Positions 43,217-60,726 of a DNA stretch of 64,000 bases are shown here, piece after piece. How positions within the stretch are numbered: position 1 is the first letter of the stretch; the number at the start of each line of letters is the position of its first letter. The position numbers and the translations under genes are program-made. A model generated the notes under the pieces. That model was not told where the DNA came from and did no database searches. It saw only the letters and a list, made by a program, of their open reading frames with translations. Source of the stretch: a virus; IMG/VR virus record IMGVR_UViG_3300046318_000491, positions 1 through 64,000 of that record; one strand, written 5' to 3'.

Positions 43217-46200
43217 TGGCAGTTAAAATTCAAGTACGTCGCGGAACCGCGGCTAACTGGACCTCAACCAACCCTACCCTTTCAGTAGGCGAGCTTGCGT
43301 TTGAGACTGATACCGGCAAGATAAAGGTCGGTACTGGTTCAACAGCATGGACCTCGCTTCCATATGCAGGTATGACCCCAACGGAAGTTGCTGCCGCCAT
43401 TACAGCAGCCGTTGGGAATGTTATCGATCTAGCTCCTGACGCACTGGACACTCTAAACGAGCTTGCTGCAGCAATTAATGATGACCCAGACTTTTTCAAT
43501 ACAATCTCAACTGCCCTGGGAACCAAGCAGGACAAGGTAACTGGCGTATCTGACACTGAAATTGGATATCTAGACGGCGTCACCTCGGCTATTCAGACTC
43601 AGCTAGATGGTAAGCAAGCGATTGTCTCAGGCGTGAGCTCAACCGAGATCGGGTATCTAGACGGTGTTACCTCTGGTATTCAGGGTCAGCTAGATGCCAA
43701 GGCTTCTTCCACTGACCTTTCAAACCACGCCTCCGACACCACAAGCATTCACGGTATTGCAGACACCTCGGCATTGGAGACCCAAACCGGGGCTCAGACC
43801 AAGGCTGATACAGCCGAGCAAAACGCTAAAAACTACGCAGAAGAAGTTGTAGCCAGTTTAATTGATTCAGCGCCAAACGCGTTAAATACTTTAAACGAAA
43901 TTGCTGCAGCAATTAATGATGATGCGTCATTCTTTATGTCTGTGGAGTCACGTGTTCAGGATGCTGAAACAGCTATTACAACTCACAATGCTGAGCTAGT
44001 AAACGTACACGGTATCTCTGATACTCGTGACTTGGTCTACGAGACTCAGATGATCACAGCAATTGGCACCCACAGCGATGACACAACAAACGTTCACGGT
44101 ATCGCTGATACGGCTGACATTGCACTGAAAGATAGTCCAACATTCACCGGCAGCGTGAGCCTCCCAGCTACTACAACAATTGAAACAACTGGCGGCGTTC
44201 TCCAGGTTGGCCCTACCGAGTTCGCCAAACTTAGCGAAATTACTGCAACAGCTACAGAGTTAAATACTCTTGAGGGCATTACAGCATCTACCGCTGAGCT
44301 AAATACACTTGATGGCATCACTGCCAGCACTACCGAGCTGAACACTCTAGATGGTATTACAGCATCTACAGCAGAGCTAAATATCCTTGACGGCGCGACT
44401 GTCACCGCTACAGAGTTAAATACTCTAGAGGGTATTACAGCATCTACATCAGAGTTGAACACTCTAGAGGGTATTACAGCCTCAACCGCTGAGCTAAACC
44501 TCCTCGACGGAGTCACCGCGACCACTGAAGAGTTGAACATCCTAGATGGAGTAACTGCTACTGCTGCAGAGCTAAATACTCTGGATGGTATTACCTCTAC
44601 TACTTCAGACATTAATAAACTTACTGGACTATCTACTTCTACTACAGAACTAGACTATGTTGCTGGAGTAACCTCTCCAATTCAGAATCAACTTGACGAT
44701 AAAGCACCTATTGCTAACCCTACTTTCACGGGTACAGTGGCCGGTGTCTCAAAGTCCATGGTTGGCTTAGGAAGCGTAGACAACACAGCTGACGTAGATA
44801 AGCCAGTTTCAACCGCGACTCAGGTTTTGATTAACCAGAAGGCGGCTCTAAACAGCCCGACCTTTACTGGAACTGTTTCAGGCATTACCAAGTCAATGGT
44901 TGGCCTAGGTAACGTTGACAACACTTCAGATGCAAACAAGTCAATCTCGAGTGCAACTCAGACTGCGCTTGATGCAAAAGCTTCGTCAACTGATTTGTCC
45001 ACTCACGCTTCAGACACCACAAGCGTTCACGGTATTGCCGACACTTCATTGCTTGAAACCACCTCAGGTGCTCAGGACAAGGCAGATGCAGCCGAGACAG
45101 CAGCTAACAGCTTTACAACCTCTGCAATAAACGCGCTTACAACTTCAGACATTGAAGAAGGTACAAACCTCTACTTTACCAATGAGCGTGCTCAGGATGC
45201 AATTGGTAACAACGTAGGCGATGGTCTAGCGTATAACGATGCTACTGGAGTTGTTTCTGTAGCTGCCGGTACTGGTATCCTTACCTCTCTTAGCGGCTTA
45301 GTAGATATAAACACCGCGGTAGTTGCTACTCTCGATGGAGAGCAAACTTTAACCAACAAAACTATTGACACTGCAGACAACGACATCACTGTCGTGGTTG
45401 CAGATGTCTCTGACTTGACGGCATCAGCATCTGAGCTAAACGTGCTTGACGGCATTACAGCTACAACTACCGAGCTTAACTACGTAGACGGTGTTACTGA
45501 CCCAATTCAGACTCAGCTTGATGCTAAGGCATCTCTTGCTGGTGCAACATTTACTGGAACTGTAAACGGTATTACTAAGGCCATGGTTGGTCTAAACAAT
45601 GTGAACAACACAGCGGATGCCAACAAGCCGGTATCTACTGCGACACAGACTGCGCTTGATGCAAAGCTATCACTGACCGGTGGAACTTTAACTGGTGACC
45701 TAACACTTAATGCTGCACCAACATCTGACTTACACGCTGCAACCAAAGCATATGTAGACACTCTTGCAACAGGTCTTCGAGTTAAAGATCCAGTAGTCGT
45801 AGCTACCACTACAAACCTAACTGCTACATATGACAATGGTACTGATGGTCTAGGAGCATTCCTAGAGGGCAGTTCAAACGGTGCTCTAGGTTTAATTGAT
45901 AACTATGCAGTAACTACCAACGACCGAGTATTGGTTCGTTCTCAGACTGATGCCACCGAAAACGGTATCTATTATGTAGACAGCCTAGGCTCTGGCTCGG
46001 CTAAGTGGAAGCTCATCCGTGCATCAGATGCAGATAACAGCCCTTCAGCCGAGGTTGCTGGTGGTAATTTCTGTCTAGTACAATTTGGTGACACCAATTC
46101 TAATGCCGGATTTATCATCTCAACCGTGGGAACAATAACCCTTGGTACTGATGATGTCGTGTTTACTCAGTTCAGTGCCGCTCAGAACATTCTTGCAGGA

Positions 46201-46998
46201 ACCGGAATTGTTAAAGACGGTTCAGAGATTTCAATCGATGCAGCTGTAGTTGCAACTTTAAATGGTTCTACGTTCACCGGAACTACAGTTCTACCAGTTA
46301 CTACCTCTATTGGTGCAGTTACAGGTACAGAGATCTCGTACCTAGAGGGTGTTACATCTTCAGTTCAAGACCAAATTGATACCAAGGCCCCGTCAAACAG
46401 CCCAATCTTTACTGGCGAGGTATATGTACCGCTAACTGCTGGTGTAGTTAAGTCTTCTGCCGGTGGCCTTCTATCTGCAGGAAACATTCAGCCAGCCGAT
46501 GTTGCAGGTACTGCAGTAATTACCACAGACTCTCGACTATCTAACTCTCGTACTCCGAGCGGTTCTGCTGGTGGAGACCTAACTGGTTCTTACCCAAACC
46601 CAACCTTGGCAACCTCAGGCGTAACCGCTGGTTCATACACCAATGCAAACATCACAGTGGACGCAAAGGGTCGAATCACCCTTGCATCTGATGGTGCTGG
46701 TGGCGGTGCAAGTCTTGCCGTATCAGCAACTCCTCCAACCGGGGCAACCGAGGGCGACCTATGGTTTAACAGCGAGGCAGCTGGAATCTATGCATTCTAC
46801 GACGGCTACTGGGTTCTAACCTCTGGTGAAGCTGGTCCTCAGGGCCCAGCTGGTCCTACTGGCCCTGCTGGAGAGGCACTTCCTACAGGAGGAACTACTG
46901 GCCAGTTCTTGACCAAGGCCTCGAACACTAACGGCGACGTTGAGTGGACAACCCTGCCTACTGATACCGATATAATGGTAATCATGGGTGCTTACTAA
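43216..46998 (+). CDS. Long tail-fibre protein with Mtd-N/hyaluronidase-like N-terminus
   Basis: [11 protein letters not shown]...[18 protein letters not shown]; [15 protein letters not shown] twice; 13-aa repeats; K.MVGL..VDNT.D repeats. Confidence 0.8.
44239..44667 (+). repeat. Eleven tandem 39-nt (13-aa) repeats, consensus [13 protein letters not shown]
   Basis: Read directly from the translation of 43216..46998. Confidence 0.9.
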
Positions 46999-47031: not shown

Positions 47032-47346
47032 ATGGCTACCACAACTAAAGCCCTAGCGCGAACTGCATTCGCCACAACCGAGGGCGATCTCTATACAGTG
47101 CCTACCACTGGAACTACCACCGTTGTCACCAACGTTGTTGTGGTAAATACCAGCCCTGCACAGCAGACCTTTAACCTTCTTCTAGATGGAGTCGAGCTAT
47201 TTGAGCAGACTCCTATTGCTGGCTACGGTACAATCTCCGTAGATATGAAGCAAGTTCTAGATGCAAACTCAACCGCTAAGAAGATTCGCGGTTTTGCATC
47301 AGCAACATCAGTAAAAGTCCACATTAGCGGAGTAGAGATAGCGTAA
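47032..47346 (+). CDS. Small beta-rich virion protein
   Basis: LYTVP...TVVTNVVVVN...ISGVE; located among fibre genes. Confidence 0.6.
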   Translation: MATTTKALARTAFATTEGDLYTVPTTGTTTVVTNVVVVNTSPAQQTFNLLLDGVELFEQTPIAGYGTISVDMKQVLDANSTAKKIRGFASATSVKVHISGVEIA

Positions 47347-50300
47347 TGAGTATTCAACAGTTCCCAGCGTCAGACGGTCGTTTTAACCCAACCGAGATCC
47401 TGACCGACCCAGTAAATAAACTACGTACCTCAACCGCTCAGGCGCTGATCGATACTGACTTCGAGTACGGTACCCAGCAGTCAAAGTGGGAGAACCTTGG
47501 CGTAACTAACAACCGCCCTTTTGCTGCACCCTCAGCCACTGCAATCCCTAACGTGTCTGCAATTACTATGTCTACCAATGCTCGCATTGTGACAGTTACT
47601 CTGACTACAACTACAGCCACCGTAACCAACGCGCTTTCAGCAACACCTGTTACGGGCTACGTTGAGTACACAACCTCGGCTGCTCACGGCTTTTCAACAG
47701 GTCAGTACGTAACCATCTCTGGGTCATCAGTTTCTGGATACAATGGTACTTTTCTAATCTACTCAACCCCAACTACTACAACTTTTGCAGTTGCCAACTC
47801 AGCCACCGGAATCGAAACTTGGTCGTCAGGTCAGGCAGTTTCCGGTGTTGCTCCGGTGACTGGAACTGCAGTCAACGTACAAGACACTTTCCTTGCGGCA
47901 GCTAACGGTAACTTCTTAATTGAATCAGGTGGTGGTACTGGAAGCTTTACCTACCTAGGTCGTGCCCAGAACAAGACAACTGTTACTGATATTTTGGACC
48001 CAAACAAGACTTCAATTTATGTTGCAAACCTGTACACAAATGCAAAAATTGGAGATGCTCCTACTCTTAGCGTTTCTGGGTCTAATCTAAAAGTCACCGT
48101 AACTACCACCGTCCCTCATGGTCTGTCTATTGGTAACACAATCGCCGTGACTGGTGTAACTGGAACTAATCCGCCAAACGGCTCGTACCGCGTGGCAACA
48201 GTTTCAACGCCCACTACCTTTGTCTACTACGCTGACCCTACCGAAGGCAATCCAGCAAGCTTGACAACAACAAACGCAGCTATCTATGTACGTCCGCAGG
48301 CTCAGTTCTTGCACCGTGCATTTGACGGCGGTGTTCTGTTCTCCGCTAACGCAAGTTCAAACTACGAGGCCGCTATTCGTCAGACTCGTCGTTACTTCCG
48401 CTACCAGTCTGGTAAGGGTCTTCAGATTTCATCTGGAACAATCTTTAAGCCTTACGCAACCATCGACGGTATTACTTCTTCTGGAACCACGGCAACAGTA
48501 ACCACCAAGGAACAGCACAACATTCAGCCAGGCACCTCAATTTTGGTATCAGGTGCGAACGAAACTCCTTATAACGGTGTTTTTACCGTCGCAGAGATCA
48601 CAGGGTTTAATACTTTTACATATGAGATGGAAACATCAGCTGCTGGCCCAGCCACTGGAATTGTAAACCTAAATGTTAACTCATGGTATGGCTCATCTAA
48701 CCGACTAGGCCAGTTTGACGCCCAAAACGGCGTCTTCTGGGAATTTGACGGTCAGGGTCTCTATGCTGTAAAGCGTTCATCTACCCAGCAGCTTTCTGGT
48801 CGATCAACCGTGACTCAAGGCTCTAACGTAGTAACCAGAACTAGCGCGTCTTTCCCTACTTCATACTCAAGTCAGCTAATTCCTGGTGACTATGTAGTAA
48901 TTCGCGGGCAGTCATACAGAGTTACTGCAGTTGATGATATATCAGCCACCCCTAACTTCACTATTTCACCTTCATATCGCGCTGCAAGCGCCTCCCACGT
49001 CAGTATCTCAAAGACTATTGATACCCGCATCCCTCAGTCAGAGTTCAACCTAGACAAGGTCGATGGTACCGGCCCTTCAGGCTACACTGTTGATTTGACC
49101 AAGATGCAGATGTTCTACATTGACTACTCTTGGTACGGTGCTGGCTTTATCCGCTGGGGACTTCGCGGTGAAGATGGCAACGTGTTCTATGTTCACAAGA
49201 TGAAGAACAACAATGTTAACAACGAAGCATACATGCGTTCTGGAAACCTTCCAGCTCGCTATGAATCATCAACCTTGCCTCCAACAACTCGTGTAGACGC
49301 GAGCCTTTCAGACACTGATACTACTATGACAGTTCTGGATACTTCGGCTTTCCCTACAGCTGGAACTCTAGTTATTCGCCCTAGCACCACAGATAACCAG
49401 GCGGGACTACTTCACGAGTACGTGAACTATACCGGCAAGACTGCTACAACTTTTACTGGACTAACTCGTGGAGGCGCTGGAGCAACTAGCGTTGCATCTA
49501 CTTGGACTATTGGTTCAAACACTGGCACTGTTGCAAGTGCTTCTGGACTTCAGATTGGCCAGCGTGTATTCTCTAGTACATCACCTAGCCCAGTACCAGA
49601 CGGTGCTTTTATTACAGGCATTTCTGGAACCGTTATCACCCTAAATACTGCAATTACCGGGTCAAACCCGACTCTAATTTTTGCTCCTATGGGTGCCACG
49701 GCTCAGACATATACTCACGTTGATACTGCACCTACATCAGTAGAGCTGGCGTTCCCTTCATTTGCACCATCTATCTCCCACTGGGGTACTTCGGTAATTA
49801 TGGATGGTCGTTTCGATGATGACGCGTCCCTTATCTTCACCTACGGTCAGACTGGAACAGTGTCAATCCCTGCCAACGCATCGAAGGCGCTATTCTCAAT
49901 CCGTCTAGCTCCTTCAGTAGATAACGGTATTAGTGCTAACTTCGGACAGCGCGAGATCATCAACCGCATGCAGCTAAAGATGAACAGCCTCGGTGTGACC
50001 ACAACCTCAGCATCCACGAATTACCTAGTGCGTGCTTACTTGAATGCAGTACCATCTGCAGGAGTTACTTGGACCACTCCAAACTTCTACGAGACCGGAA
50101 CTGCTAACTCATCGCTAGCTCAGATTGCTGACTACCGCGCTAACGGAAACGTTACTGTCTCTGGTGGTGAAATTACTGGTGGTTTCTTGTCTCAGGGTAC
50201 CGACTCAATTGAATTGAACCGTCTACGCGACCTTGGTAACTGTATTCTTGGCGGTGGAGGTACAACCTCAAACAGTGGCATCTACCCAGACGGCCCAGAC

Positions 50301-50384
50301 ACACTTACCATCGTTGTAACTAACCTATCAACAGCTACCGCGTCATTTAGCGGTCGTCTAGCATGGACAGAGGCACAGGCATAA
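47346..50384 (+). CDS. Large virion structural protein with repeated beta-barrel modules
   Basis: Three T....HG...G..V.ISG.....YNG.F.V repeats; RQTRRYFRYQSGK; IDYSWYGAG. Confidence 0.7.
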   Translation: MSIQQFPASDGRFNPTEILTDPVNKLRTSTAQALIDTDFEYGTQQSKWENLGVTNNRPFAAPSATAIPNVSAITMSTNARIVTVTLTTTTATVTNALSATPVTGYVEYTTSAAHGFSTGQYVTISGSSVSGYNGTFLIYSTPTTTTFAVANSATGIETWSSGQAVSGVAPVTGTAVNVQDTFLAAANGNFLIESGGGTGSFTYLGRAQNKTTVTDILDPNKTSIYVANLYTNAKIGDAPTLSVSGSNLKVTVTTTVPHGLSIGNTIAVTGVTGTNPPNGSYRVATVSTPTTFVYYADPTEGNPASLTTTNAAIYVRPQAQFLHRAFDGGVLFSANASSNYEAAIRQTRRYFRYQSGKGLQISSGTIFKPYATIDGITSSGTTATVTTKEQHNIQPGTSILVSGANETPYNGVFTVAEITGFNTFTYEMETSAAGPATGIVNLNVNSWYGSSNRLGQFDAQNGVFWEFDGQGLYAVKRSSTQQLSGRSTVTQGSNVVTRTSASFPTSYSSQLIPGDYVVIRGQSYRVTAVDDISATPNFTISPSYRAASASHVSISKTIDTRIPQSEFNLDKVDGTGPSGYTVDLTKMQMFYIDYSWYGAGFIRWGLRGEDGNVFYVHKMKNNNVNNEAYMRSGNLPARYESSTLPPTTRVDASLSDTDTTMTVLDTSAFPTAGTLVIRPSTTDNQAGLLHEYVNYTGKTATTFTGLTRGGAGATSVASTWTIGSNTGTVASASGLQIGQRVFSSTSPSPVPDGAFITGISGTVITLNTAITGSNPTLIFAPMGATAQTYTHVDTAPTSVELAFPSFAPSISHWGTSVIMDGRFDDDASLIFTYGQTGTVSIPANASKALFSIRLAPSVDNGISANFGQREIINRMQLKMNSLGVTTTSASTNYLVRAYLNAVPSAGVTWTTPNFYETGTANSSLAQIADYRANGNVTVSGGEITGGFLSQGTDSIELNRLRDLGNCILGGGGTTSNSGIYPDGPDTLTIVVTNLSTATASFSGRLAWTEAQA

Positions 50385-51266: not shown

Positions 51267-52628
51267 ATGAGCAAAAGAACTGGTAGACACTCCGCGCAGC
51301 AAAACGACTTTTTGCAGCCTAGTGCCGTAACTATAACTAACGCATATAACGTTGGCACTAACCGCCCGTATCTATTGACTGCCACTGGCACTAATGGTCA
51401 GGGTGGCGCTGTTGCACTAGTATGGACTCTACCGGGAGACTCACCTGCTGCTCTTAGCTATGACATAACATCTAGCCCAGCTACAGTCACAAAAAATACC
51501 ACTAGCCTACCAACAGGTGGATCTCCTTTTATTTTTGAAGGTCTAGCATCTGGTGTTTCATATACCTTTACTGTAATTGCAAAGAATAATGCTGGCAGCT
51601 CTCTGCCGACAACATCAGGATCAGTGGCTGTATCAACAGTTCCCGCAGCTCCAAGTGCCCCTACAGTACGAAGTGTCACAAACGAGCAGATTGACTATGT
51701 AACCATCACAGCTCCTTCAGCTAATGGTGGTTCTAATATTCTTGCAACCGCAGGCTATTCCTGGGAGAGCAATGATGGTAAATCAGGCAACCGTGACGCA
51801 ACTGGAGAATTTGCTGTTGGTCAGGAAGCAAATACATCTCAGCAATATCGAGTTAAAGCTAATAACTCCAACGGATCATCAGATTGGTCTGCCTATTCTG
51901 GTGCCGTAACCACCCCCCCTTACTTTCCTCCATACTTTCCACCTTACTTCCCTCCGTTCTTCCCTTACTTCCCTCCATACTTCCCACCTTACTTCCCACC
52001 GTTCTTCCCTTACTTCCCTCCGTTCTTCCCTTACTTCCCACCGTTCTTCCCGTTCTTCCCGTTCTTCCCACCGTTCTTCCCTTACTTCCCTCCGTTCTTC
52101 CCTTACTTCCCACCGTTCTTCCCGTTCTTCCCACCTCGCTTCGGATGTATTGAAGCAGAGACTTTGATCGAGACAGCCAACGGTCCTGTAGCGGCTAAGG
52201 ACTTGAAGGTAGGAGACACTATCCTCTCAATGTCACTAGAAGAGCTAGGCGCTGAGCAGATGACTCCTATCGAGTTCACTATCGGAGATAGCTTGACTTT
52301 CGGAGCTGAAGGCTTGGTTGACACTACAATCACCGCGATTGTAGAAAGTGTAAAGACTGGAATTGTCTACTTCAACGGCAAGAAGGAGTCTCGCTACTCT
52401 AGCCAGCAGCCAGTGTTTATTAAGTCAAACGGCGAATTCCACGTTCGTATGGCTGGAAACCTAGTAATTGGCGACACTCTAGTTCAGGTAAATGCCGATG
52501 GCACATACCAGGAAGAGATGATTACCGAGACAACCGTGCTACACGGCGAGTTCACCGTCTACCAGTTCACATGTTCCCCGCACCACTGGTTCATTGCTGG
52601 TGGGTATCTAGTCCACAACAAGCTCTAA
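51267..52628 (+). CDS. FN3-FN3 / Pro-Tyr-Phe repeat / Hint-domain protein
   Basis: YTFTVIAKNNAG and YRVKANNSNG FN3 ends; 74-aa P/Y/F tract; G|CIEAETLI...DLKVGD...VYQF...FIAGGYLVHN Hint motifs. Confidence 0.85.
   Translation: MSKRTGRHSAQQNDFLQPSAVTITNAYNVGTNRPYLLTATGTNGQGGAVALVWTLPGDSPAALSYDITSSPATVTKNTTSLPTGGSPFIFEGLASGVSYTFTVIAKNNAGSSLPTTSGSVAVSTVPAAPSAPTVRSVTNEQIDYVTITAPSANGGSNILATAGYSWESNDGKSGNRDATGEFAVGQEANTSQQYRVKANNSNGSSDWSAYSGAVTTPPYFPPYFPPYFPPFFPYFPPYFPPYFPPFFPYFPPFFPYFPPFFPFFPFFPPFFPYFPPFFPYFPPFFPFFPPRFGCIEAETLIETANGPVAAKDLKVGDTILSMSLEELGAEQMTPIEFTIGDSLTFGAEGLVDTTITAIVESVKTGIVYFNGKKESRYSSQQPVFIKSNGEFHVRMAGNLVIGDTLVQVNADGTYQEEMITETTVLHGEFTVYQFTCSPHHWFIAGGYLVHNKL
51915..52136 (+). repeat. 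Tandem PPYF/PPFF/PYF/PFF coding repeat (20 units plus PP)
   Basis: 12 tetramer and 8 trimer units; 34 Pro, 30 Phe, 10 Tyr. Confidence 0.97.
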
Positions 52629-52637
52629 AAATAAAAG

Positions 52638-52667
52638 AATAAGGCCCTACGGGGCCTTATTTTTTTT
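52638..52667 (+). terminator. Intrinsic terminator
   Basis: AATAAGGCCC-TACG-GGGCCTTATT followed by a T run. Confidence 0.85.
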
Positions 52668-52729
52668 GCCAAATTATACTATTAGTGCTAGACTCATTTA
52701 AGCCAGAGTAAAACCGACATGGGAGAATA

Positions 52730-53482
52730 ATGGATTCCAACCAAGGACAAAATGATTGGTTCACTAAAGACCGATCAGAAACAGCTAGTAATAGATCAGC
52801 TGATCGCCAGCTAGGGCCAATAAAGGTAGCAAATCCAGCCCTCGGCATCAATGTGTATAGCGGAGCCATAACTAAAGAGCAGGGTCAAGCATACATCCAA
52901 ATCTTAGAGTCTAAGCTGAACGGTCAAACCAGATACGAATGGCAGGGCGCACGAGTTACTTCATCTGATGAAGTCGCTCTATACGCCCGTAATGCCTTGG
53001 ACTTTAAAGTTAGTTCTAACAATCTAGGACTTAAAGACGCTGATAACGCGGAGCTTTATGACATTCACGAGCGAATATTTCAAGCGATTCGCCGCTGTGT
53101 AGACGACTACGGACGCATCTGGGGAGTCGGCATTGCGTCCTACGAGTCCTTCAACTTTGTAAAATATGACGGTCCTGGAACCCACTTCAAGATCCATGCT
53201 GACCACGGGCCTACTTACGTATGCACTATCTCAGTTTGCGTATATCTAAATGACGACTACGAAGGCGGGGAAATCCATTTCCCTAGGTTTGATGGCCTAA
53301 CTATTAAGCCAAAGGCCGGAGATATTGTAGTATTCCCCTCGACCTATATCTATGAACATGCATCTTTAGATATGGTTAGTGGCATTAAGTATGCAGTAGT
53401 AGTCATGACTGACTACAATGATCGTGATGGCGTGAACCATCGAGTATCGCCTACAATTCAAGCATACGAGCTTAAGTACTAA
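52730..53482 (+). CDS. Prolyl-4-hydroxylase-like 2OG-Fe(II) oxygenase (array 1/10)
   Basis: HAD...YLNDDYEGGE...HAS...KY. Confidence 0.9.
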   Translation: MDSNQGQNDWFTKDRSETASNRSADRQLGPIKVANPALGINVYSGAITKEQGQAYIQILESKLNGQTRYEWQGARVTSSDEVALYARNALDFKVSSNNLGLKDADNAELYDIHERIFQAIRRCVDDYGRIWGVGIASYESFNFVKYDGPGTHFKIHADHGPTYVCTISVCVYLNDDYEGGEIHFPRFDGLTIKPKAGDIVVFPSTYIYEHASLDMVSGIKYAVVVMTDYNDRDGVNHRVSPTIQAYELKY

Positions 53483-53483
53483 A

Positions 53484-54056
53484 TTGAGCAATAACATTAA
53501 GGTCTACGAGAATTTTGTTTCTGCGCAGGAAATAGATTTTCTACTGAGCTTTTTTATTGACTACAGTGATAACTTCGAGCTGATAAATAACTCAGTGAAT
53601 CTACTTGGATTTGGTCAAGACAATTTCCCAGCCTCCTCCCTGTTCAATAATCCTAATAGTTTTTCGGACATTCTTCCTCAGGAAAAAATTAAGTTTATAC
53701 AGGACTACTACAAACGTGTAGAAACTACAGTGGGCTCCGATATTGCTAAAGACATAAGCATGTCAGCACTATGGTTTGTGAAAACTATGGAAGGCGGGTT
53801 TCCGGAGCACGGCGATAATGAACCAGACGCCATCTATCAGTACGAGCAGACATGTATTTTATATCTAAACGACTGCGAGAATGGTGGAGAAATAGTGCTC
53901 CCGGAGTTCGACTACAGCTTTTTACCAAAAGCGGGATCCTTACTATCATTCCCAGCAAATTACGTACATGCAGTTCTACCCGTGTCTCACCCGAGGTATA
54001 CGATGCCTAGCTGGCTTACCGAGAATAAGGCATATTCTTTAGACAATTACGTATAA
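53484..54056 (+). CDS. Prolyl-4-hydroxylase-like 2OG-Fe(II) oxygenase (array 2/10)
   Basis: HGD...YLNDCENGGE...HAV...RY. Confidence 0.87.
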   Translation: MSNNIKVYENFVSAQEIDFLLSFFIDYSDNFELINNSVNLLGFGQDNFPASSLFNNPNSFSDILPQEKIKFIQDYYKRVETTVGSDIAKDISMSALWFVKTMEGGFPEHGDNEPDAIYQYEQTCILYLNDCENGGEIVLPEFDYSFLPKAGSLLSFPANYVHAVLPVSHPRYTMPSWLTENKAYSLDNYV

Positions 54057-54151
54057 ATACCAGGTATTTAGTGAATAATTTTTAGTTTTAGTGTAGAGTT
54101 AAGCCATAAATAGGTTTAACCTATAGCTGACCATAGCGATAGAAGGAACAT

Positions 54152-54901
54152 ATGGAACCGGAACACATTAGCGGGCCTGATGAAGAAATGCAAAAGCAGA
54201 TGGACGATCACAATGTCCGCCTTAAGGCTTGGTACACCATAGATGAGCAAACTTGGAGTTCTGCCGAAGAGGTATCCCCTGGAACCGGCATATGGGTTTA
54301 TCATGATGTTCTACCAAAGAGCCTAAATATCATTGACCGTTTAGAGAATGTTTTGAATGATGAAACTAACTCATACAACTACGCTGATGCAATGGTGGGA
54401 TACGGCATTAAGATGCCGGAATATCGAGACTGCTTCGATTTTAAATACAAGAAAAGCGATATTGCAGAGGATCAAAGTGAAGCAGGGCTAGCCCTTCACT
54501 CTTTAGCCGACGACACTTACTCCCGCCAGGTGCAAGCTGTAAAGCACTACACAAAGCACTACAATATCGGCGAACTACGCTACTGGGAAGCAACTAACTA
54601 CATTAAGTACGGCCCGGGTCAGCATTTCCAGGAACACCATGACCACGGGTTCTCTTACAACTGCGTAGTCTCTATTGTAGCTTTCCCTAATGATGATTAC
54701 GAAGGCGGGGAATTATACTTCCGACTACATAATGTAACCATTAAGCCAAAGGCTGGTGACATCTACGTATTCCCTTCAAACTTTATGTATCCACACCGGG
54801 CTATGCCTGTCAAGTCTGGTACAAAGTATTCAATGGTTACAATGCTCGACTACTCGGATAAGTATCACAAGCCGGGATTCTATGAAGAAACTGGAAGTTA
54901 A
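54152..54901 (+). CDS. Prolyl-4-hydroxylase-like 2OG-Fe(II) oxygenase (array 3/10)
   Basis: HHD...NDDYEGGE...HRA...KY. Confidence 0.9.
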   Translation: MEPEHISGPDEEMQKQMDDHNVRLKAWYTIDEQTWSSAEEVSPGTGIWVYHDVLPKSLNIIDRLENVLNDETNSYNYADAMVGYGIKMPEYRDCFDFKYKKSDIAEDQSEAGLALHSLADDTYSRQVQAVKHYTKHYNIGELRYWEATNYIKYGPGQHFQEHHDHGFSYNCVVSIVAFPNDDYEGGELYFRLHNVTIKPKAGDIYVFPSNFMYPHRAMPVKSGTKYSMVTMLDYSDKYHKPGFYEETGS

Positions 54902-55656
54902 TGAGTTCGATTAAGGTCTACAAAGGCTACCCAAACACTGCCACAGTAGCGCCGCTACCGGCAGCCCGCGACTGGATGGATAAGTCTCATGACAAGCACG
55001 CCTACATGTGCTTCCCAATGGCACTAACCAACCGTCTTGGCTGGGGCATTTCATTCCCTGAAGATATTGTTTTTATCTGGGATGGCATTGATGATACGAC
55101 TCCAGACCACGTTAAGGTTTTAAAGGGTCAAGAGTGGGCAAACTCAAAGCGCGGTAACGCCACGCTTAGCTTCGAGACAGGTCTTATTTTTAAGACAGAC
55201 CCAGACGTGACGTTGTTAACTATGCCCGTCCCAAACCAGTTCATTGCTGGTACACAGTGTTTTACCACTCTGATCAGTACGTCGTTCTATATGCCACCGC
55301 TTCCAATTGCCTGGAAGCTGACAGAGGCTAACAAAGAAATTACAATCCCCGCTGGTACGCCTGTTGCAGCACTGCTCCCTATTTCACTAGGCCACCTAGA
55401 GAATGATTACGTTATGGAGCTTAACAAGGAGATCTTAGACAACTCGTACTGGCAGGAGTTGCAGAAATACGGTGATGCAGCTCAGGCTAAAAATGCAATA
55501 GGCGACTGGTCCAAGATGTACCGAGACGCCGTTGACTACAAAGGAGATAAAGTGGGAGCCCACGAAACTAAATCAATCAAGCTTAAGACTGTGACATGCC
55601 CGTTCACCGGTCAAACCTATGAAGTAGAGGATGACTCGGTTGAGCCTAACGAATAA
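54901..55656 (+). CDS. DUF6065-like protein
   Basis: P....RDWMD.....HAY.C.PM...N..GW; PVPN; no HxD...H oxygenase motif. Confidence 0.65.
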   Translation: MSSIKVYKGYPNTATVAPLPAARDWMDKSHDKHAYMCFPMALTNRLGWGISFPEDIVFIWDGIDDTTPDHVKVLKGQEWANSKRGNATLSFETGLIFKTDPDVTLLTMPVPNQFIAGTQCFTTLISTSFYMPPLPIAWKLTEANKEITIPAGTPVAALLPISLGHLENDYVMELNKEILDNSYWQELQKYGDAAQAKNAIGDWSKMYRDAVDYKGDKVGAHETKSIKLKTVTCPFTGQTYEVEDDSVEPNE

Positions 55657-56380
55657 GATTAAGTTTGTCATGAATAGGCCTTGGCTGACAAAAGACAGTC
55701 CGTCAGCACCAGGGCCAACCATTAAAACTATTCCTGACTGGTATCGCAAGGCGGATAGATTTGCTATTAATCCCCACACTAACGAGCCCTGGATCAATCC
55801 TCAGGATGGCGGAAAGGTCCCTACTTGGAAGGCTTGTCCAGCAGTCTTTGACATCATGGGAACCGGATACGTCTACAAGACCCCGTGCGATGTAGAAGTT
55901 TACGAAGAAAATGGCGAGATCAAGATCAAGATAGAAGATCAGTACAACAAGGATTTTGTTGGAGATCGCATGCCTATGCCTCAGTTTGTTCCGCCTCAGG
56001 GGTACCACGAAAAGCACTTTGCATGGTGGTCTGACTGGGCAGTAGTACTGCCAGAAGGGTATAGTGCTCTGTATACTCAACCATTTAATAGGTTTGAGCT
56101 GCCATTTCTAACAACCAGCGGTATTATTGACAATGATAAGGTCCACCTTCCTGGAACTATGCCCTTTTTTATTGTCAAGGGATTTACAGGGGTAATCCCG
56201 GCAGGAACTCCTTATGCTCAGATTCTCCCTTTTAAGCGTGAAGACTGGACATCAGAACTACAGACAAACATCAGCTACGAGCAGATGATGAAGAACAACA
56301 TGGAAAACAGTAATAAATATCGAGTACCTAATGGTGGCGTCTACCAGAAGGAAGTATGGACTCGCCGAGTCTACGAGTAA
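55631..56380 (+). CDS. DUF6065-related protein
   Basis: PDWY...TWKACP...D....GY...P.GYS.L...P.N...PF...GIID.D...IPAGTP.AQI.PFKRE.W; shares IPAGTP with the upstream gene. Confidence 0.6.
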   Translation: MTRLSLTNKIKFVMNRPWLTKDSPSAPGPTIKTIPDWYRKADRFAINPHTNEPWINPQDGGKVPTWKACPAVFDIMGTGYVYKTPCDVEVYEENGEIKIKIEDQYNKDFVGDRMPMPQFVPPQGYHEKHFAWWSDWAVVLPEGYSALYTQPFNRFELPFLTTSGIIDNDKVHLPGTMPFFIVKGFTGVIPAGTPYAQILPFKREDWTSELQTNISYEQMMKNNMENSNKYRVPNGGVYQKEVWTRRVYE

Positions 56381-56394
56381 GGTAGGATAGCAAT

Positions 56395-57069
56395 ATGACC
56401 GAACAAGAATTAGCTAACAGCCACCGCGGAGCACCTCGCGTCTCTATCACCCCTTCGGGGTATTATGGTGATTCACCGGACAATATTGTCACACTAGAAA
56501 ACTTCATGACTGAAGAAGAGATCGTGGCTCTAGATACTTTTATCCGTAGTAACACGGAGTGGGACGTCACTGAAACTCACTATAACGAAGAGGGTACAGT
56601 AATTTATGACTCGGATTACTGGAAGGATCGAGTAGCAACTTACACGACTATCGATCGGGTAGACCCAGAAATCCCTGCAATTATTGAGGGTATGGTCGAG
56701 CGACTAAAGGTAGAAGTAGATAAATTTTTTAAGGTAGATGCTATGCCTACCAGTCCAGCATTGGTCCGCTGGCTTCCGGGAATGCTGCAGCAGCCTCACG
56801 CTGATAAAGAGCTGCACCAAGGAAACGATAGAGGCAAGCCAAATGACTTTCCATACTATGACCTAGCAGGCCTTTTTTATATCAATGATGACTATGAGGG
56901 GGGCGAGTTGTATTTCCCTAATCAAGGGATTCAGTTTAAGCCTAAGCGCGGAGCTGCCTACTTCTTTCCTGGAGATTTAAATTATATTCATGGTGTAACC
57001 GAGATTACCTCTGGAACTAGATATACTTGCCCATTTTTCTGGACAATTGTAAAGCATGTCGACGCTTGA
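56395..57069 (+). CDS. Prolyl-4-hydroxylase-like 2OG-Fe(II) oxygenase (array 4/10)
   Basis: HAD...YINDDYEGGE...HGV...RY; TAGGAT 6 nt before the ATG. Confidence 0.9.
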   Translation: MTEQELANSHRGAPRVSITPSGYYGDSPDNIVTLENFMTEEEIVALDTFIRSNTEWDVTETHYNEEGTVIYDSDYWKDRVATYTTIDRVDPEIPAIIEGMVERLKVEVDKFFKVDAMPTSPALVRWLPGMLQQPHADKELHQGNDRGKPNDFPYYDLAGLFYINDDYEGGELYFPNQGIQFKPKRGAAYFFPGDLNYIHGVTEITSGTRYTCPFFWTIVKHVDA

Positions 57070-57688
57070 ACCATATGAGATAGCCCCCCTGGTTTTTGTA
57101 TATCCAGGGGTCTATAAAGACGCGCCCACTCTAGTAGATGCACTAGAAAATGGACCAAAAGGGATCAACTACTCGATTTACGACTGGGAGCCATGGGAAG
57201 GTAGAGGCAAGCATGCCACTATAAACCCAGGGCTGCAAGTCAAACTAGAAGAAGACGACAATGTTTTTGATGCGGTCAGATCTTTCGTTTCGGCGTATGA
57301 TGAAATTTTTGCTGATTATATTTCTAGAAAAAACATACAATTAAGCGGTCCAGTGATGTCTAATATTGCATGCAATTATTATGAAGAGGGAGCATCCATG
57401 GGGTTTCATACCGATTCCGATCCTGAAGACGAGCAAGCTCCTTACTACTCCATTACAGTAAATTGCTACCTAAATGATGACTACGAGGGCGGAGACTTAG
57501 TCTTTAACCTCTCTACTGAAGAAAACGCAGAGACTGTTAGATACACACCAAAAGCTGGCGACTTTGTTGTCATCCCCGCCTCACCGCCATATTTACACAA
57601 ATCTGAAAAAATTATCTCTGGTAAAAAGTATTTTTCGCACCGAGTAGTGACTGAAGATAAAAAGCCAATATGGCAGTTAGGAGTCTAG
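57056..57688 (+). CDS. Prolyl-4-hydroxylase-like 2OG-Fe(II) oxygenase (array 5/10)
   Basis: HTD...YLNDDYEGGD...HKS...KY. Confidence 0.9.
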   Translation: MSTLEPYEIAPLVFVYPGVYKDAPTLVDALENGPKGINYSIYDWEPWEGRGKHATINPGLQVKLEEDDNVFDAVRSFVSAYDEIFADYISRKNIQLSGPVMSNIACNYYEEGASMGFHTDSDPEDEQAPYYSITVNCYLNDDYEGGDLVFNLSTEENAETVRYTPKAGDFVVIPASPPYLHKSEKIISGKKYFSHRVVTEDKKPIWQLGV

Positions 57689-58453
57689 GTGGATATCAAG
57701 GTTTTATATCCAAAGATCCATATCTACAGTGGACTTCTTGGTGACTCTCAGGAGTTAATAGCCACCCTACGCGACGTATACGATTGGAGCGGTTGGTATA
57801 CTTTTGGAGATCTAGCAGTAGTGCAGATAGATCGTCGAAATTTTGATACGTTTCCCTCGCGTGAAGACTGGGACCTGGTAGAGCAATCTATTGAAAAGCC
57901 AAACGCAGCTGCCTCTTCTATTATCAATGCTTTCTACAGTGCCACTAGCCACTATGTAGATGTCAACAACGTTAGCCCAGTTAGCTGGAACTTTAACTCT
58001 CCAGCTGTCTGCATGTATAACACTAATGCCGGGGCGTCTGAAGACGTTGCTATGCACTACCACACTGACTTCCAGCAAGAAAAAAGAGATGAACCAGGGT
58101 TTAAGCCTTACATCACCTGCACTATGTACCTAAATGACGATTATGAAGGTGGAGAGATCGAGTTTAAAGTACTACAGTCAGATGGCTCATTCGATCGCGT
58201 CTCATATAAGCCAAAAGCAGGGGATATTTTAGTTTTCCCTTCCGATGAACCGTACTACCACGGAGTAAATCTAACCACCAAGGGTAAAAAGTACTTTGTA
58301 CGGTCTTTCTGGGACTACTACTTCCCGGGAACTGAAGAGTGGCACGAGGGTTTAAAAACCTACGGAGAAGAGACTTGGCTTAAAATGGAACAGGATCGCG
58401 AAAAAGCCGAAAGAACTACTGGACGCTACAACCTAATGAATAGGGGTAACTAA
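57689..58453 (+). CDS. Prolyl-4-hydroxylase-like 2OG-Fe(II) oxygenase (array 6/10)
   Basis: HTD...YLNDDYEGGE...HGV...KY. Confidence 0.9.
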   Translation: MDIKVLYPKIHIYSGLLGDSQELIATLRDVYDWSGWYTFGDLAVVQIDRRNFDTFPSREDWDLVEQSIEKPNAAASSIINAFYSATSHYVDVNNVSPVSWNFNSPAVCMYNTNAGASEDVAMHYHTDFQQEKRDEPGFKPYITCTMYLNDDYEGGEIEFKVLQSDGSFDRVSYKPKAGDILVFPSDEPYYHGVNLTTKGKKYFVRSFWDYYFPGTEEWHEGLKTYGEETWLKMEQDREKAERTTGRYNLMNRGN

Positions 58454-59178
58454 TGTTTGATTCAATAGACGCCTCTACCTTTATTTACTACAAAGATGAA
58501 GAGAATACTCTTTCTAAACTAGGCGTTACTAAGAACAGAATTGTTGAAGTCCCTAACTTCATAGACGCTGATACTGCTAAAAAGTTAGTTGACTACTTTG
58601 ATAATGGCCCGGAGACCTGGGATTTTATAGCCTTCTACCATTCATACGGGATGGGCCTTAACCCCGACCCTAAGGAATTAGCTGTATTTGATCTCGATCC
58701 AAACGTATTTGACAAAATAAACGCCGGAACTAAGACTTTAGTCGAGCTCATATTCGAGCAGAGGGTTAAAGCAAATACGGCTCATGCTCAGAAATGGGTA
58801 GAAGGCGGTTTTGCAAATCCGCACTCGGACAATTCAGATGAAGATGGTAACCCCACCGCGTTTGAGATAAACAAATACGTAGCTATTTTGTACTTAAATG
58901 ATAGCTATGAAGGCGGAGAACTCTACTTCCCTGAGCACGGTCTAGAGATCAGACCAAATAAGTACTCTTTATATGTTTTACCTGGGGGGATAGAGAATAT
59001 ACATGGAGTGCGCGAGATACTTTCTGGGGAAAGGCATACCATGCTCTCTTTCTGGGACTTTGCAGACGCTGAATACTCAGAGGAGCGCAAGGCTGAATGG
59101 GCTGCCGAGCTCAAAGAAGTCAGAGCCTCACAGGCGGAGCAGCGTATAGAATGGAAGAATGGAAATAAATATGTTTAA
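58453..59178 (+). CDS. Prolyl-4-hydroxylase-like 2OG-Fe(II) oxygenase (array 7/10)
   Basis: HSD...YLNDSYEGGE...HGV...RH. Confidence 0.9.
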   Translation: MFDSIDASTFIYYKDEENTLSKLGVTKNRIVEVPNFIDADTAKKLVDYFDNGPETWDFIAFYHSYGMGLNPDPKELAVFDLDPNVFDKINAGTKTLVELIFEQRVKANTAHAQKWVEGGFANPHSDNSDEDGNPTAFEINKYVAILYLNDSYEGGELYFPEHGLEIRPNKYSLYVLPGGIENIHGVREILSGERHTMLSFWDFADAEYSEERKAEWAAELKEVRASQAEQRIEWKNGNKYV

Positions 59179-59986
59179 TTCAGAAGAACTACTGACAGAT
59201 CTGCCCACTCCAACGGAGATCTATCCGCGCATATTTGTGTACAAAGCAGCATTTAAAAACCCGCTAGAGTTTATTGAAAAAGTAAAGCAACTGCCTACAT
59301 GGCAGTCTTGGTGGACTTTCGGAGATATGGCTAGCGTCCCCGGAATCGAATATACCAAGTTTGACACTAAGCCTACCTACGAAGAGTGGGAGGCATTTAT
59401 TGCTGGATACGTGGAAGATACAAAAGGCAAGCCGGGCTGGGACTTATCTCCTTATGTAGATAAGTTATTCTACAAGGCTACAGAAGATCACATGAAGAAG
59501 TATCCTCTAGAGATACCCAACTGGTCCCACCAAAAGCCATCTATTGCAAAATACGTAGCCCTAGGCGGGGTAGATGATGACAAATACTCCATGCACTACC
59601 ACACTGACTTCCAGCGAGAAAAGGCTGATGCCCCAGGGCTTAAGTATGCCCTAACCTGTACTATGTATTTAAATGATGACTACGAGGGCGGGGAGCTTAC
59701 GTTTAAGATAGCAAACGGCTCGGGCGGTTTCGACACTATTGACTACAAGCCAGGGGCTGGCGACGTAGTGGTTTTTCCTTCGGTAGAGCCGTACTTCCAT
59801 GGAGTGAAGCAGATTACCTCGGGAGATCGATACTTTATTAGGACTTTTTGGACCAGTGAATTTGCTGGCACCCCTGAGTGGCTTGCAAATCAAGAAAAGT
59901 ATGGTAAAGAAGTTTGGGCTCAGATGGAGAAAGAGCGCGAGAGCGCCTTCAGACGCGGCGAGTCCACAGACATATACAATGATTAG
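59159..59986 (+). CDS. Prolyl-4-hydroxylase-like 2OG-Fe(II) oxygenase (array 8/10)
   Basis: HTD...YLNDDYEGGE...HGV...RY; start may be 59171. Confidence 0.9.
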   Translation: MEINMFNSEELLTDLPTPTEIYPRIFVYKAAFKNPLEFIEKVKQLPTWQSWWTFGDMASVPGIEYTKFDTKPTYEEWEAFIAGYVEDTKGKPGWDLSPYVDKLFYKATEDHMKKYPLEIPNWSHQKPSIAKYVALGGVDDDKYSMHYHTDFQREKADAPGLKYALTCTMYLNDDYEGGELTFKIANGSGGFDTIDYKPGAGDVVVFPSVEPYFHGVKQITSGDRYFIRTFWTSEFAGTPEWLANQEKYGKEVWAQMEKERESAFRRGESTDIYND

Positions 59987-60026
59987 CGAGTATACTTATA
60001 TTCTAACTATTAAGAATGGGTTATAA

Positions 60027-60710
60027 ATGTTTCCAGAACCAGTATGGCTTAAGGATGACGTTGTCACGTTCCCAGGATTTTTAGATCCTGAAGAGTGCCA
60101 GAAAATTATCGACTTCTTTGAAGATCAAGGTAAAGAGTATTGGATGCAGACATGCTTCTATGACTCCCTTGGTATGGCTCTCGTCTCGGACGTTGATGCG
60201 CTAGAACGCTCGGGCCTAGAGGACATCCATAAAGACTACTTCCGCTGGCTACCAGAGCACATTCGTGCTGCAGTGGAGTTGGCATACGACCGAGGAATTA
60301 AGCTAAACAGTGCTCATGCTCAGAAGTGGCCTAAGGGCGCTTTCGCTCGCTGGCACTCAGACAGCTCGGACATTGACGGCAACCCAACCGCGTGGCGCGA
60401 CAACAAGTTTGCTAGTGTTCTTTACCTAAATGACAACTATGAAGGCGGAGAGCTAGAGTTCCGTGACCACAACCTAAGCGTAAAGCTTCCTCAGGGTAGT
60501 TTGATTGCTTTTCCAGGTGGAGTAGAGAATATCCACCGCATCAACGAAATTATGGATGGCACAAGATTCACCATCGTAGGTTTCTGGGACTACATCGACT
60601 CTGTCTATACAGAAGAAGAATTGGCTCAACGCGAGGCCGAAATCGCTTATGAGCGAACTCGCCAGGATGAGCAAAAGCGCCAGTGGGCTGCCGGTAATAA
60701 AAACGCCTAA
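60027..60710 (+). CDS. Prolyl-4-hydroxylase-like 2OG-Fe(II) oxygenase (array 9/10)
   Basis: HSD...YLNDNYEGGE...HRI...RF. Confidence 0.9.
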   Translation: MFPEPVWLKDDVVTFPGFLDPEECQKIIDFFEDQGKEYWMQTCFYDSLGMALVSDVDALERSGLEDIHKDYFRWLPEHIRAAVELAYDRGIKLNSAHAQKWPKGAFARWHSDSSDIDGNPTAWRDNKFASVLYLNDNYEGGELEFRDHNLSVKLPQGSLIAFPGGVENIHRINEIMDGTRFTIVGFWDYIDSVYTEEELAQREAEIAYERTRQDEQKRQWAAGNKNA

Positions 60711-60726
60711 TTAGCTTGGGAGAGCC

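Follow-up and report, generated by a model that had tools for sequence, protein, structure and literature searches.

A terminal Hint domain on a tail-fibre-region protein of an uncultured aquatic phage, and its possible role as a self-removing cap

Here we confirm that a tail-fibre-region protein from an uncultured aquatic phage ends in a genuine Hint domain of the intein/Hedgehog type, some 160 residues long. Proteins in which an aromatic/Pro tract runs into a terminal Hint domain are common in uncultured phages. Based on comparison of these sequences, we propose with moderate confidence that the domain is an optional, self-removing cap resembling type A BIL domains, which would undergo an N-S acyl shift at Gly293/Cys294 followed by hydrolysis.

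Gene layout and the fold of the C-terminal domain

The gene (51267..52628 of the 64,000-nucleotide stretch analysed here, hereafter the window; all features below are given for the + strand) encodes 453 amino acids according to the ORF list and its translation, arranged as an N-terminal peptide, two FN3-like sandwiches, a Pro/Tyr/Phe repeat, a terminal Hint domain and Lys-Leu. For the whole protein, six full-length homologues and 13 viral loci were found, and a full-length AF2 model was made. The N-terminal peptide MSKRTGRHSAQQNDFLQP (residues 1-18; 51267..51320), recognized as conserved from alignment A1 and the homologue sequences, is common to the FN3-type members of the family and is possibly a virion attachment end. 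It is followed by two FN3-like beta-sandwich domains (residues ~20-125 and 130-213; 51324..51905), seen both as a Pfam fn3 match (E 1.2e-6, residues 42-115) and as two beta-sandwich blocks in the full-length model (pLDDT 70-90). The translated Pro/Tyr/Phe repeat comes next (residues 216-290, pLDDT <50 in the same model) and closes with PPRFG (residues 289-293; 51912..52145 in all). The predicted scissile junction, Gly293/Cys294 (52143..52148), is placed by position-1 conservation in homologues, with Cys294 encoded by TGT at 52146-52148. From here the Hint domain extends over 158 residues to Asn451 (52146..52619), as supported by profile, AF2, Foldseek and BFVD, leaving only Lys-Leu and the stop codon (AAG CTC TAA; 52620..52628). 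The GC-rich hairpin AATAAGGCCC-tacg-GGGCCTTATT and following T-run, 10 nt past the stop codon (52638..52668; scored on the - strand in the scan, the + strand T-run being read off the sequence), probably ends the fibre-gene unit as an intrinsic terminator. The gene sits in a virion/fibre module and, with its Pro/aromatic tail, adjoins a large orphan array of 2OG-oxygenases that are prolyl-hydroxylase-like.

Single-sequence Pfam matches to the C-terminal domain are weak and all below gathering scores (Hint_2, 0.0011; Intein_splicing, 0.0037; PT-HINT, 0.029). A profile of 10 family sequences searched against PDB sequences reaches 2lwy, the C. thermocellum BIL, at E 1.1e-8 and ~15 further inteins and BILs at E<0.002. 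The AF2 model of the domain is confident (pLDDT 92.2, pTM 0.87) and has 57 Foldseek matches in the PDB at E<=0.001, which, among the matches listed, are all Hint-fold chains. The best is again 2lwy (TM 0.71/0.81), accompanied by BIL2 (6y75), mini-inteins and HhC 1at0 (TM 0.69/0.75), and the top BFVD matches reach TMq 0.87-0.92. Although 2lwy ranks first by both profile and Foldseek, its margins over the mini-inteins are small. The Hint domain that the first-pass annotation had read from the letters is thus borne out by profile and structure searches, with BIL/Hog-type autoprocessing domains as its closest relatives; it has the beta-fold with blocks A, B, F and G and the position-1 nucleophile, Cys294, of the HINT superfamily. 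The Pfam Hint module PF01079 has no match in the window protein and one, at E 0.019, among 10 scanned family members. The Pretoxin HINT family, PF07591, was considered and rejected (E 0.029; 15.1 bits, where the cut-off is 27.7); nor does any domain follow the Hint that it could release.

Motifs were assigned from alignments and not by eye. Block B, usually T-x-x-H-P, is S378-S-Q-Q381-P here (52398..52412, within Y377-S-S-Q-Q-P382) and aligns to TFDHP of 2lwy; in the profile alignment the family's 'sptqp' stands opposite the same residues, and the block F/G strands stand opposite VYNF...VLVH. Blocks F and G together, VYQFTCSPHHWFIAGGYLVHN (52557..52619, from the family/2lwy alignment), hold Gln433 at block F:4 (codon 52563-52565, within V-Y-Q433-F) and end in V449-H450-N451 (52611-52619), so that the domain closes on His450-Asn451. 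Cys294 (52146), the SSQQP block B, Gln433 and the VHN end with its Lys-Leu-stop all lie where the first-pass annotation had put them. Its statement that canonical splicing is impossible also stands, because the +1 residue is Lys452, which is no nucleophile, and the C-extein is only two residues long.

Catalytic positions and distribution across the family

Conservation of Cys1, whose absence the first-pass annotation had named as refuting its reading, is complete if serine is counted as an equivalent nucleophile: position 1 is Cys in 86 and Ser in 12 of the 98 alignable homologues. The -1 residue, on the other side of the junction, varies (K, G, F, R, Y and others). At the block B Thr position, 165 of 169 domains carry Ser or Thr (S 123, T 42). 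In block B the scissile bond is normally activated by the His, whose replacement had been read as a special lesion that might leave the reaction slow or conditional, or the domain dead; that view is not supported, since Gln is the commonest residue in the family (Q 78, H 48, E 18; n=144). On the tree this position changes repeatedly among His, Gln and Glu against an unchanging nucleophile and block B Ser/Thr. Trp441, a candidate compensatory partner for Gln381, accompanies Gln at block B in 35/50 domains and is found in 4/49 domains with another residue there, an association for which the independent-pairs test rests on only 4 supported contrasts. Gln433 is likewise present in place of the usual Asp of block F, as had been noted, and is hardly unusual, with N 37, D 30, Q 22 and E 19 at block F:4 in the family and Asn in 2lwy. 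The block F:13 His, which assists Asn cyclisation, is not conserved. Across the 10 sequences of alignment A2, with relatives down to 24% identity, the catalytic signature is under selection.

The C-terminal ends are more varied. Among 135 single-domain members matched as far as the C-terminus of the domain, 82 end in His-Asn, 24 in another His/Tyr-x pair (HQ, HD, YN and others) and 29 have no His or Tyr. After His-Asn, 35 members have one Lys and nothing more, and the remainder mostly have x-Lys-...; tails after the Hint domain are mostly 1-5 residues long and at most 19.

A structural disulfide does not explain the conservation of position 1, because Ser replaces Cys there and because the potential partner, Cys436 (block F:7), is present in only 49 domains. 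Cys436 was also considered, and rejected, as a second nucleophile of the class 3 intein or Hedgehog C143 type: it lies at F:7 and not F:4, and since it alternates with Val, Thr and Ala in the family it looks like a core position. Cys436 happens to be Hint residue 143, the same number as Hedgehog C143; we treat this as coincidence because Hedgehog C143 lies at the very end of HhC. Hedgehog C143 is discussed in PMC12054796.

The Hint family is essentially viral and large (397 clusters at 50% identity, E<=1e-10), and its members share a layout in which varied, virion-type N-termini lead into a low-complexity aromatic/Pro tract and then the terminal Hint. The 40 residues before the Hint consist on average of 64% F/P/Y/W/G, compared with a background of 24%. 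The cap is also found on unrelated N-termini, whether PASTA-like, collagen-like or giant fibre-like, and Phage NCTB and Erwinia phage pEa_SNUABM_5 each contribute a tail-fibre protein to the members; atlas neighbours are Uroviricota. In 185,579 prokaryotic species genomes scanned with one peptide pattern, only 3 weak matches were found. Among deposited phages, no close homologue was found of the gene (blastn) or of its Hint domain or N-terminal part (tblastn); a search of them with family member P0039 gave no match, and Phage NCTB and pEa_SNUABM_5 were reached only from divergent family members. PHROGs has no family for the Hint domain.

Hint-less orthologues and the fate of the junction

Twelve of 32 FN3-repeat homologues have no Hint domain and stop 0-25 residues past the same ...PPRF(G) repeat end. 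Examples are ...PPRFG plus an acidic tail in P0160, ...PPRFAIRPI in P0174 and ...PPRFTAI in P0186; an acidic tail takes the place of the Hint in P0160, P0161 and L024. One Hint-less homologue lies at the same genomic position as the window gene, and L024 (without Hint) and L023 (with Hint) share a location, flanked in both by the fibre gene on one side and the same oxygenase array on the other. The gaps after Hint-less orthologues hold other genes, with no split or stand-alone Hint gene among them. The Hint is, furthermore, the least constrained part of the region and its most divergent segment between close relatives: between the window and L002, flanking genes share 85-93% identity, the FN3 part 70% and the Hint 53.5%, the kind of fast divergence that would be expected of a disposable domain.

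It is possible to draw these observations into a maturation scheme. The gene product would be the precursor of a tail-fibre-module protein, consisting of the N-terminal peptide, two FN3 domains, a 75-residue Pro/Tyr/Phe tail acting as N-extein, and a type-A-BIL-like Hint cap. After translation, Cys294 would attack the carbonyl of Gly293 in an N-S acyl shift, assisted by Ser378 and Gln381 of block B, and the resulting thioester would be resolved mainly by water. The predicted products are a mature protein of ~293 residues, with PPRFG as its new C-terminus (...FFPPRFG-COOH), and a free Hint fragment of ~160 residues. Until folding or assembly, the cap probably holds the very hydrophobic tail soluble or unengaged. 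BILs without a +1 nucleophile yield mainly cleavage products (PMC4031507, PMC7664689). Counting against the scheme, and bearing on the rate and efficiency of any cleavage, are a Gln at the block B His position and an unconserved His at block F:13. A cleaved product would resemble the natural Hint-less proteins, since these stop after the same repeat end. For the same reason plain release of a free C-terminus is favoured over cyclisation, or ligation to a lipid, amine or protein, which the first-pass annotation had offered beside it as equals. A further point against pure N-cleavage is that it would give no role to the conserved His-Asn end and the Lys that follows at +1/+2 in the 82 members ending in HN.

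Perhaps the thioester is instead transferred, the activated C-terminus of the Pro/aromatic tail being passed to a specific nucleophile such as a lysine side chain on a second virion protein, an amine or hydroxyl group in a component of the host envelope, or a lipid. The protein would thereby be covalently anchored, and the phage would possess an equivalent of the cholesterolysis seen in Hedgehog or the ubiquitin-like conjugation of BUBL. Hint domains are established to perform such chemistry, BIL2 from the BUBL1 locus of Tetrahymena (6y75) ranks second among the structural matches, HhC 1at0 matches as well, and covalent attachment would be useful in a virion/fibre module. Nevertheless, we consider transfer improbable: the domain ends at block G with no adduct-recognition region, unlike Hedgehog; neither the -1 residue nor its flank is conserved; BIL domains mostly give hydrolytic cleavage (PMC4031507); and the Hint-less orthologue-like proteins cannot perform it, yet keep their position and neighbours, which argues that any transfer chemistry is inessential to what the protein does. 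Slightly less probable again is a ligase-like Hint that joins the tail C-terminus to a defined acceptor, with the conserved His-Asn-Lys end and the block B Gln/Glu tuning the chemistry; the acceptor would again be a virion-protein Lys, a host envelope amine or a lipid, and this phage version of Hedgehog-type C-terminal modification carries a low probability in our estimate. The adjacent prolyl-hydroxylase-like oxygenase array might act on the same Pro/aromatic tail.

A Hint domain that has lost catalysis and stays attached as a folded hydrophilic end (a solubility cap, an oligomerisation element or a receptor-contact tip), with Cys1 kept for structure, would accommodate the block B His-to-Gln change, the unconserved block F:13 His, the domain's place at the far C-terminal end of a fibre-module protein, and its divergence, which is fast like that of receptor-binding tips. 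It would also suit the permanently attached acidic tail found in the same place in some orthologues: the Hint-less orthologues are evidence that the cap is dispensable, not that it is cleaved, and a permanently attached solubility domain would also fit the acidic-tail cases. We nonetheless rate it unlikely, marginally below ligation, given the invariant Cys/Ser at position 1 and Ser/Thr in ~98% at block B in relatives to 24% identity (A2), a Cys-to-Ser exchange that keeps the chemistry and would not keep a disulfide, and the alternation of H, Q and E at block B without nucleophile loss; inteins without the block B His can, moreover, remain active (PMC7664689). The His-Asn end in 82 members, followed in almost all by Lys at +1 or +2, could point to a BIL-A-type 'splicing' of the tiny tail, in which Asn451 cyclises and frees Lys-Leu, whose alpha-amine or Lys epsilon-amine attacks the thioester to leave a mature protein ending ...PPRFG-Lys-Leu. 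PMC4031507 puts forward such a route for type A BILs, but we think it very unlikely here: the released dipeptide or single Lys would diffuse away, the His-Asn pair is confined to 82/135 members with 29 lacking His/Tyr near the end, the His that would aid cyclisation is not conserved, and one or two extra residues bring no evident benefit.

Likeness to known systems and significance

Type A BIL domains, reportedly described by Amitai in 2003 and Dassa in 2004, offer the closest parallel to the proposed self-removing cap, 2lwy leading both the profile search and the structural comparison. Both have an N-terminal Cys (Cys294), a C-terminal His-Asn (His450-Asn451), no +1 nucleophile (Lys452 here) and no endonuclease. 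They also share an occurrence in variable surface-type proteins and cleavage as the expected main outcome (PMC4031507). The window Hint differs in being viral and terminal, with a two-residue tail, whereas type A BILs are bacterial and internal to secreted or surface proteins; it also has Gln for the block B His, follows an aromatic/Pro low-complexity tract, and is present or absent among orthologues. A class 1 intein was rejected on the grounds of the +1 Lys with only Lys-Leu before the stop, the S-S-Q-Q of block B opposite T-F-D-H of 2lwy, and the terminal position, the Hint-less orthologues ending after the repeat and not being contiguous intein-less alleles.

Hedgehog/Hog proteins (HhC, 1at0) likewise combine variable N-terminal cargo with a C-terminal Hint that removes itself via a Cys1 thioester, and the Gly-Cys at the window junction adds to the likeness, although the phage family does not keep Gly at -1. 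Unlike them, the window protein has no sterol or adduct recognition region after the Hint and keeps an intein-type His-Asn end. BIL2 of Tetrahymena BUBL1 (6y75/6tmm), among the top structural and profile matches, uses its thioester for purposes other than splicing, but its neighbour in the protein is a ubiquitin-like domain, which it attaches to targets; the window protein has no such cargo. Peptidase S74 ends are C-terminal domains of low-complexity fibre proteins that aid maturation and then cut themselves off (PMC7824862). The role proposed here is the same, yet fold and chemistry are unrelated (S74 is a Ser-Lys autopeptidase), making this an analogy and not ancestry. Annotated but unstudied relatives comprise BN7874_136 of Phage NCTB (labelled 'tail protein, contains intein domain'), the tail fibre gp108 of Erwinia phage pEa_SNUABM_5 and a UniProt 'Hint domain containing protein' of uncultured Caudovirales, all fibre/tail-region proteins ending in a Hint with Cys1, His-Asn and a short tail. 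BN7874_136 and gp108 differ from the window protein in a canonical T-x-x-H-P block B, in N-terminal parts that are collagen-like and in a Cys that does not immediately follow an aromatic/Pro tract, and the pEa_SNUABM_5 protein has Thr at +1.

A full-text search of the non-subscription literature turned up no description of phage virion proteins, or proteins of the fibre region, that end in a Hint domain, nor of the layout with an aromatic/Pro tract ahead of it; what is new here is the presence or absence of the cap among orthologues and the divergence of the Hint between close relatives. The Hint junction defines the substrate end of a Pro/aromatic tail beside a large orphan 2OG-oxygenase array, and because orthologous proteins vary in whether they bear the cap, the purpose of a terminal Hint can be addressed directly. 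The family is also a natural experiment on an 'essential' block B histidine, with His, Gln and Glu alternating around a constant nucleophile, and this variation could be instructive for the mechanism of inteins and for designing self-cleaving tags. Should the cleavage prove real, autoprocessing by Hint/BIL domains would be a widespread and unstudied maturation route of phage fibre-region proteins, spanning the 397 clusters of the family.

A terminal Hint domain in a fibre-region gene

The 453-aa Hint-bearing ORF at 51267-52628 (+) belongs to a 153.7-kb uncultured virus record with direct terminal repeats and completeness rated at 100%; the window covers the first 64 kb of it. The structural genes are similar to those of T4-like cyanophages (~40-44% identity), one example being a 1012-aa virion protein (47346-50384) with matches in S-RSM4, S-RIM44 and Syn1. 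On re-reading, every residue named in the first-pass annotation was correct: Cys294 at Hint position 1 (52146-52148), block B SSQQP (52398-52412), block F Gln433 (52563-52565) and a closing Val-His-Asn (52611-52619) followed by Lys-Leu-stop, all on the + strand. The Hint fold proposed there was also recovered, both by profile and by structure. Single-sequence Pfam matches were all sub-threshold (Hint_2, 0.0011; Intein_splicing, 0.0037; PT-HINT, 0.029). A profile built from ten family members had as its top PDB sequence 2lwy, a bacterial intein-like (BIL) domain of C. thermocellum (E 1.1e-8), followed by the MjaKlbA, CDC21-1, TvoVMA, TFIIB and RadA inteins and Tetrahymena BUBL1 BIL2; its block B segment aligned with TFDHP of 2lwy, and at the sequence level this profile settles the Hint identity of the domain. 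The AlphaFold2 model from the same alignment (Hint pLDDT 92.2, pTM 0.87) again returned 2lwy first in Foldseek (TM 0.71/0.81), then BIL2 (6y75), many mini-inteins and Hedgehog HhC (1at0). Modelled at full length, the protein comprises two FN3-like sandwiches, an unstructured repeat (residues 216-290, pLDDT <50) and the Hint.

The defining features place the domain in the Hint superfamily, closest to type A BILs, and its location within the protein is like that of a Hog domain. It differs from inteins, an identity we rejected, in having no +1 nucleophile, C-extein or T-x-x-H; the first two absences agree with the earlier view that canonical splicing is precluded. Hedgehog/Hog identity was rejected for want of an adduct-recognition region and a PF01079 match, and pretoxin Hint identity on the basis of a sub-threshold match and no toxin domain.

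Family architecture and catalytic signature

An exhaustive profile search yielded 2615 clusters (50% identity) with E<=0.001, of which 397 reached E<=1e-10. Family statistics were drawn from the best 150 of the 2615, in which the Hint almost always occupies the protein's extreme C-terminus, behind N-terminal parts ranging over FN3 pairs, PASTA-like domains, Cys-rich modules and giant fibre-like proteins. A low-complexity tract nearly always lies immediately upstream of it (types include FFPP, FTPFG, FFxPPx, DFTPVPP and IIATPP), and the 40 residues before the Hint average 64% F/P/Y/W/G vs a background of 24%, reaching at least 50% in 77 of 98 proteins. Several long proteins (P0029, P0080, P0090, P0104, P0109, P0119, P0129, P0142, P0149, P0151 and P0154) carry 2-6 Hint-like stretches per chain, which is a different architecture from the single terminal Hint.

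The closest viral structural models are 'Hint domain containing', 'Fibronectin type III' and 'PASTA_pknB' proteins of uncultured Caudovirales (TMq 0.87-0.92), and the family's Atlas neighbours are Uroviricota clusters. Among 185,579 prokaryotic species genomes, scanned with a single peptide pattern, only 3 weak matches appeared. Deposited phages hold only two, divergent, relatives, each adjoining tail-fibre genes: Phage NCTB BN7874_136, annotated 'tail protein, contains intein domain', and the tail-fibre protein gp108 of Erwinia phage pEa_SNUABM_5. In each of them block B is a canonical T-x-x-H-P, in contrast to SSQQP here. Three annotated 'intein domain' proteins are grouped among the tail-fibre genes of Phage NCTB (LT598654, 2915-8420), one of which, BN7874_135 (153 aa), is a stand-alone Hint-like protein that has Cys at residue 8 and ends ...VHNKVD.

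The nucleophile to which the first-pass annotation drew attention is conserved, as Cys (86) or Ser (12), in 98 of the 98 domains whose alignment covers position 1, six apparent exceptions being local alignments that begin at profile position 10 or later. The Cys-to-Ser exchange, together with the patchy occurrence of Cys436 (49 domains), speaks for chemistry, and not a disulfide, as the reason why the first residue is conserved. The block B Thr position is Ser in 123 and Thr in 42 of 169 domains; the His position is Gln in 78, His in 48 and Glu in 18, with at least 14 changes on a FastTree tree of 99 domains vs 36-43 in the shuffles listed, and only four contrasts on well-supported branches. 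These counts and the tree indicate that Gln381 is the commonest state at a position tolerating H, Q and E rather than a recent lesion, so that the special weight earlier given to the His-to-Gln change is not supported; the nucleophile is never lost. Some inteins without the block B His still splice, via compensatory changes (PMC7664689).

Among 135 single-domain members with matches reaching the Hint C-terminus, 82 end in His-Asn, and the tail after it is a single Lys in 35 and otherwise mostly x-Lys-...; 24 have other His/Tyr-x ends, and 29, resembling type B BILs, have no His/Tyr near the end (VIS, VIA, others). The F:13 His is not conserved in the family. Hint domains on phage tail proteins already appear as database annotations; with subscription journals outside the search, no paper was found on terminal Hint domains of phage fibre-region proteins, nor on the repeat-Hint cassette, the alternation of H, Q and E at block B or the presence or absence of the Hint among orthologues.

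Genomic neighbourhood

Across nine distinct viral loci, the repeat-Hint gene lies downstream of a tail-fibre-like gene in seven and upstream of a 2OG-Fe(II) oxygenase gene in six; the upstream gene has PHROG tail-fibre matches. Here twelve same-strand genes (52730-61416, +) follow directly, of which ten are oxygenase-like by mutual similarity (Pfam on one only, PF13640, E 7.5e-11) and two match phrog_7084 (54901-56380). This order beside the repeat gene is kept, with or without a Hint, in related loci L001, L002, L008, L009, L023, L024, L026 and L027, and prolyl hydroxylation of the repeat tail is an obvious candidate role for the array. Because a GC-rich, terminator-like hairpin with a T-run lies 10 nt 3' of the Hint gene's stop, between it and the array, with a promoter-like site beyond, the Hint gene is probably the end of its transcription unit.

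ORFs of 89-91 aa in other frames and on the - strand of the repeat (51859-52153; LPSVLP..., GRTGRTVGSK...) are by-products of repetitive DNA, not genes. Beyond the window, a gene for a 285-aa protein in the same genome (G000:C1:65801-66658; L022:1084-1941) has its own PPYF tract, which matches that of the Hint gene at 97% identity over 89 nt. This tract is internal, with a PASTA-like segment after it and no Hint, so the tract is able to act as a linker within a chain and not just as a tail at its end. In two viral loci, another repeat-Hint-like gene sits in tandem with the first (L006:8817-9401, L007:2265-2771). Elsewhere in the window, a 1260-aa fibre-region protein (43216-46998, +) begins with Mtd_N, the major tropism determinant N-terminus (E 1e-15), and - strand genes at 12110-13555, 22426-23601 and 30877-32331 encode an ADP-ribosyltransferase exoenzyme domain protein (PF03496, E 3e-24), a subtilase (PF00082) and a carbamoyltransferase.

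Hint-less orthologues and the predicted release of the repeat

Searching with the N-terminal 215 residues gave 32 FN3-repeat homologues, 20 with a Hint at the end and 12 without, the latter terminating 0-25 residues past a repeat end of similar type. Thus P0160 (77% identical) reads ...FFPPRFG and then a 23-residue acidic tail, P0161 ...PPRFG and an acidic tail, and P0174, P0186 and P0183 end ...PPRFAIRPI, ...PPRFTAI and ...PPRFGFRY. Locus L024 has the repeat protein with an acidic tail instead of a Hint, and L023 has the Hint (...SPR/CIEGNT...YSSEQP...VHNK); the two genes occupy the same position, with a fibre-like gene on one side and, on the other, the same array of oxygenases, whose identity to that of the window is 71-94%. 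No split Hint gene was found in the gaps after the Hint-less genes. As judged from these sequences, the Hint is an optional add-on, and a cut at Gly293/Cys294 would leave an end like those of natural Hint-less orthologues. No other part of the region diverges as much: against locus L002, identity is 85-93% in flanking genes, 70% in the FN3 part and 53.5% in the Hint, and the L002 Hint is nearer to its counterpart in L001 (76.7%), a more distant locus. Such a pattern suggests that constraint has relaxed, that modules have been exchanged, or both.

We predict, with somewhat better than even confidence, that the Hint is a type-A-BIL-like self-removing cap. If it reacts as BIL and Hog domains are established to do, Cys294 would undergo an N-S acyl shift to form a thioester, resolved mainly by hydrolysis, to release an FN3-FN3-repeat protein with a free ...PPRFG end. 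BILs lack the +1 nucleophile, type A BILs keep His-Asn, and cleavage products dominate type A (PMC4031507). Of the release, cyclisation or ligation first suggested, hydrolytic release reads best; transfer of the activated C-terminus to another nucleophile is unlikely, being weakened by the existence of Hint-less orthologues. An attached, non-catalytic domain seems a little more doubtful still, given the invariant nucleophile, and a BIL-A-type reaction that ligates the Lys-Leu tail is very improbable. Pure N-cleavage does not account for the conserved His-Asn-Lys end.

By analogy with the S74 chaperone ends (PMC7824862), a self-removing cap may serve to keep so hydrophobic a tail in solution, or unengaged, up to assembly; the acidic tails found in place of the Hint in some orthologues suggest a purpose of this kind too.
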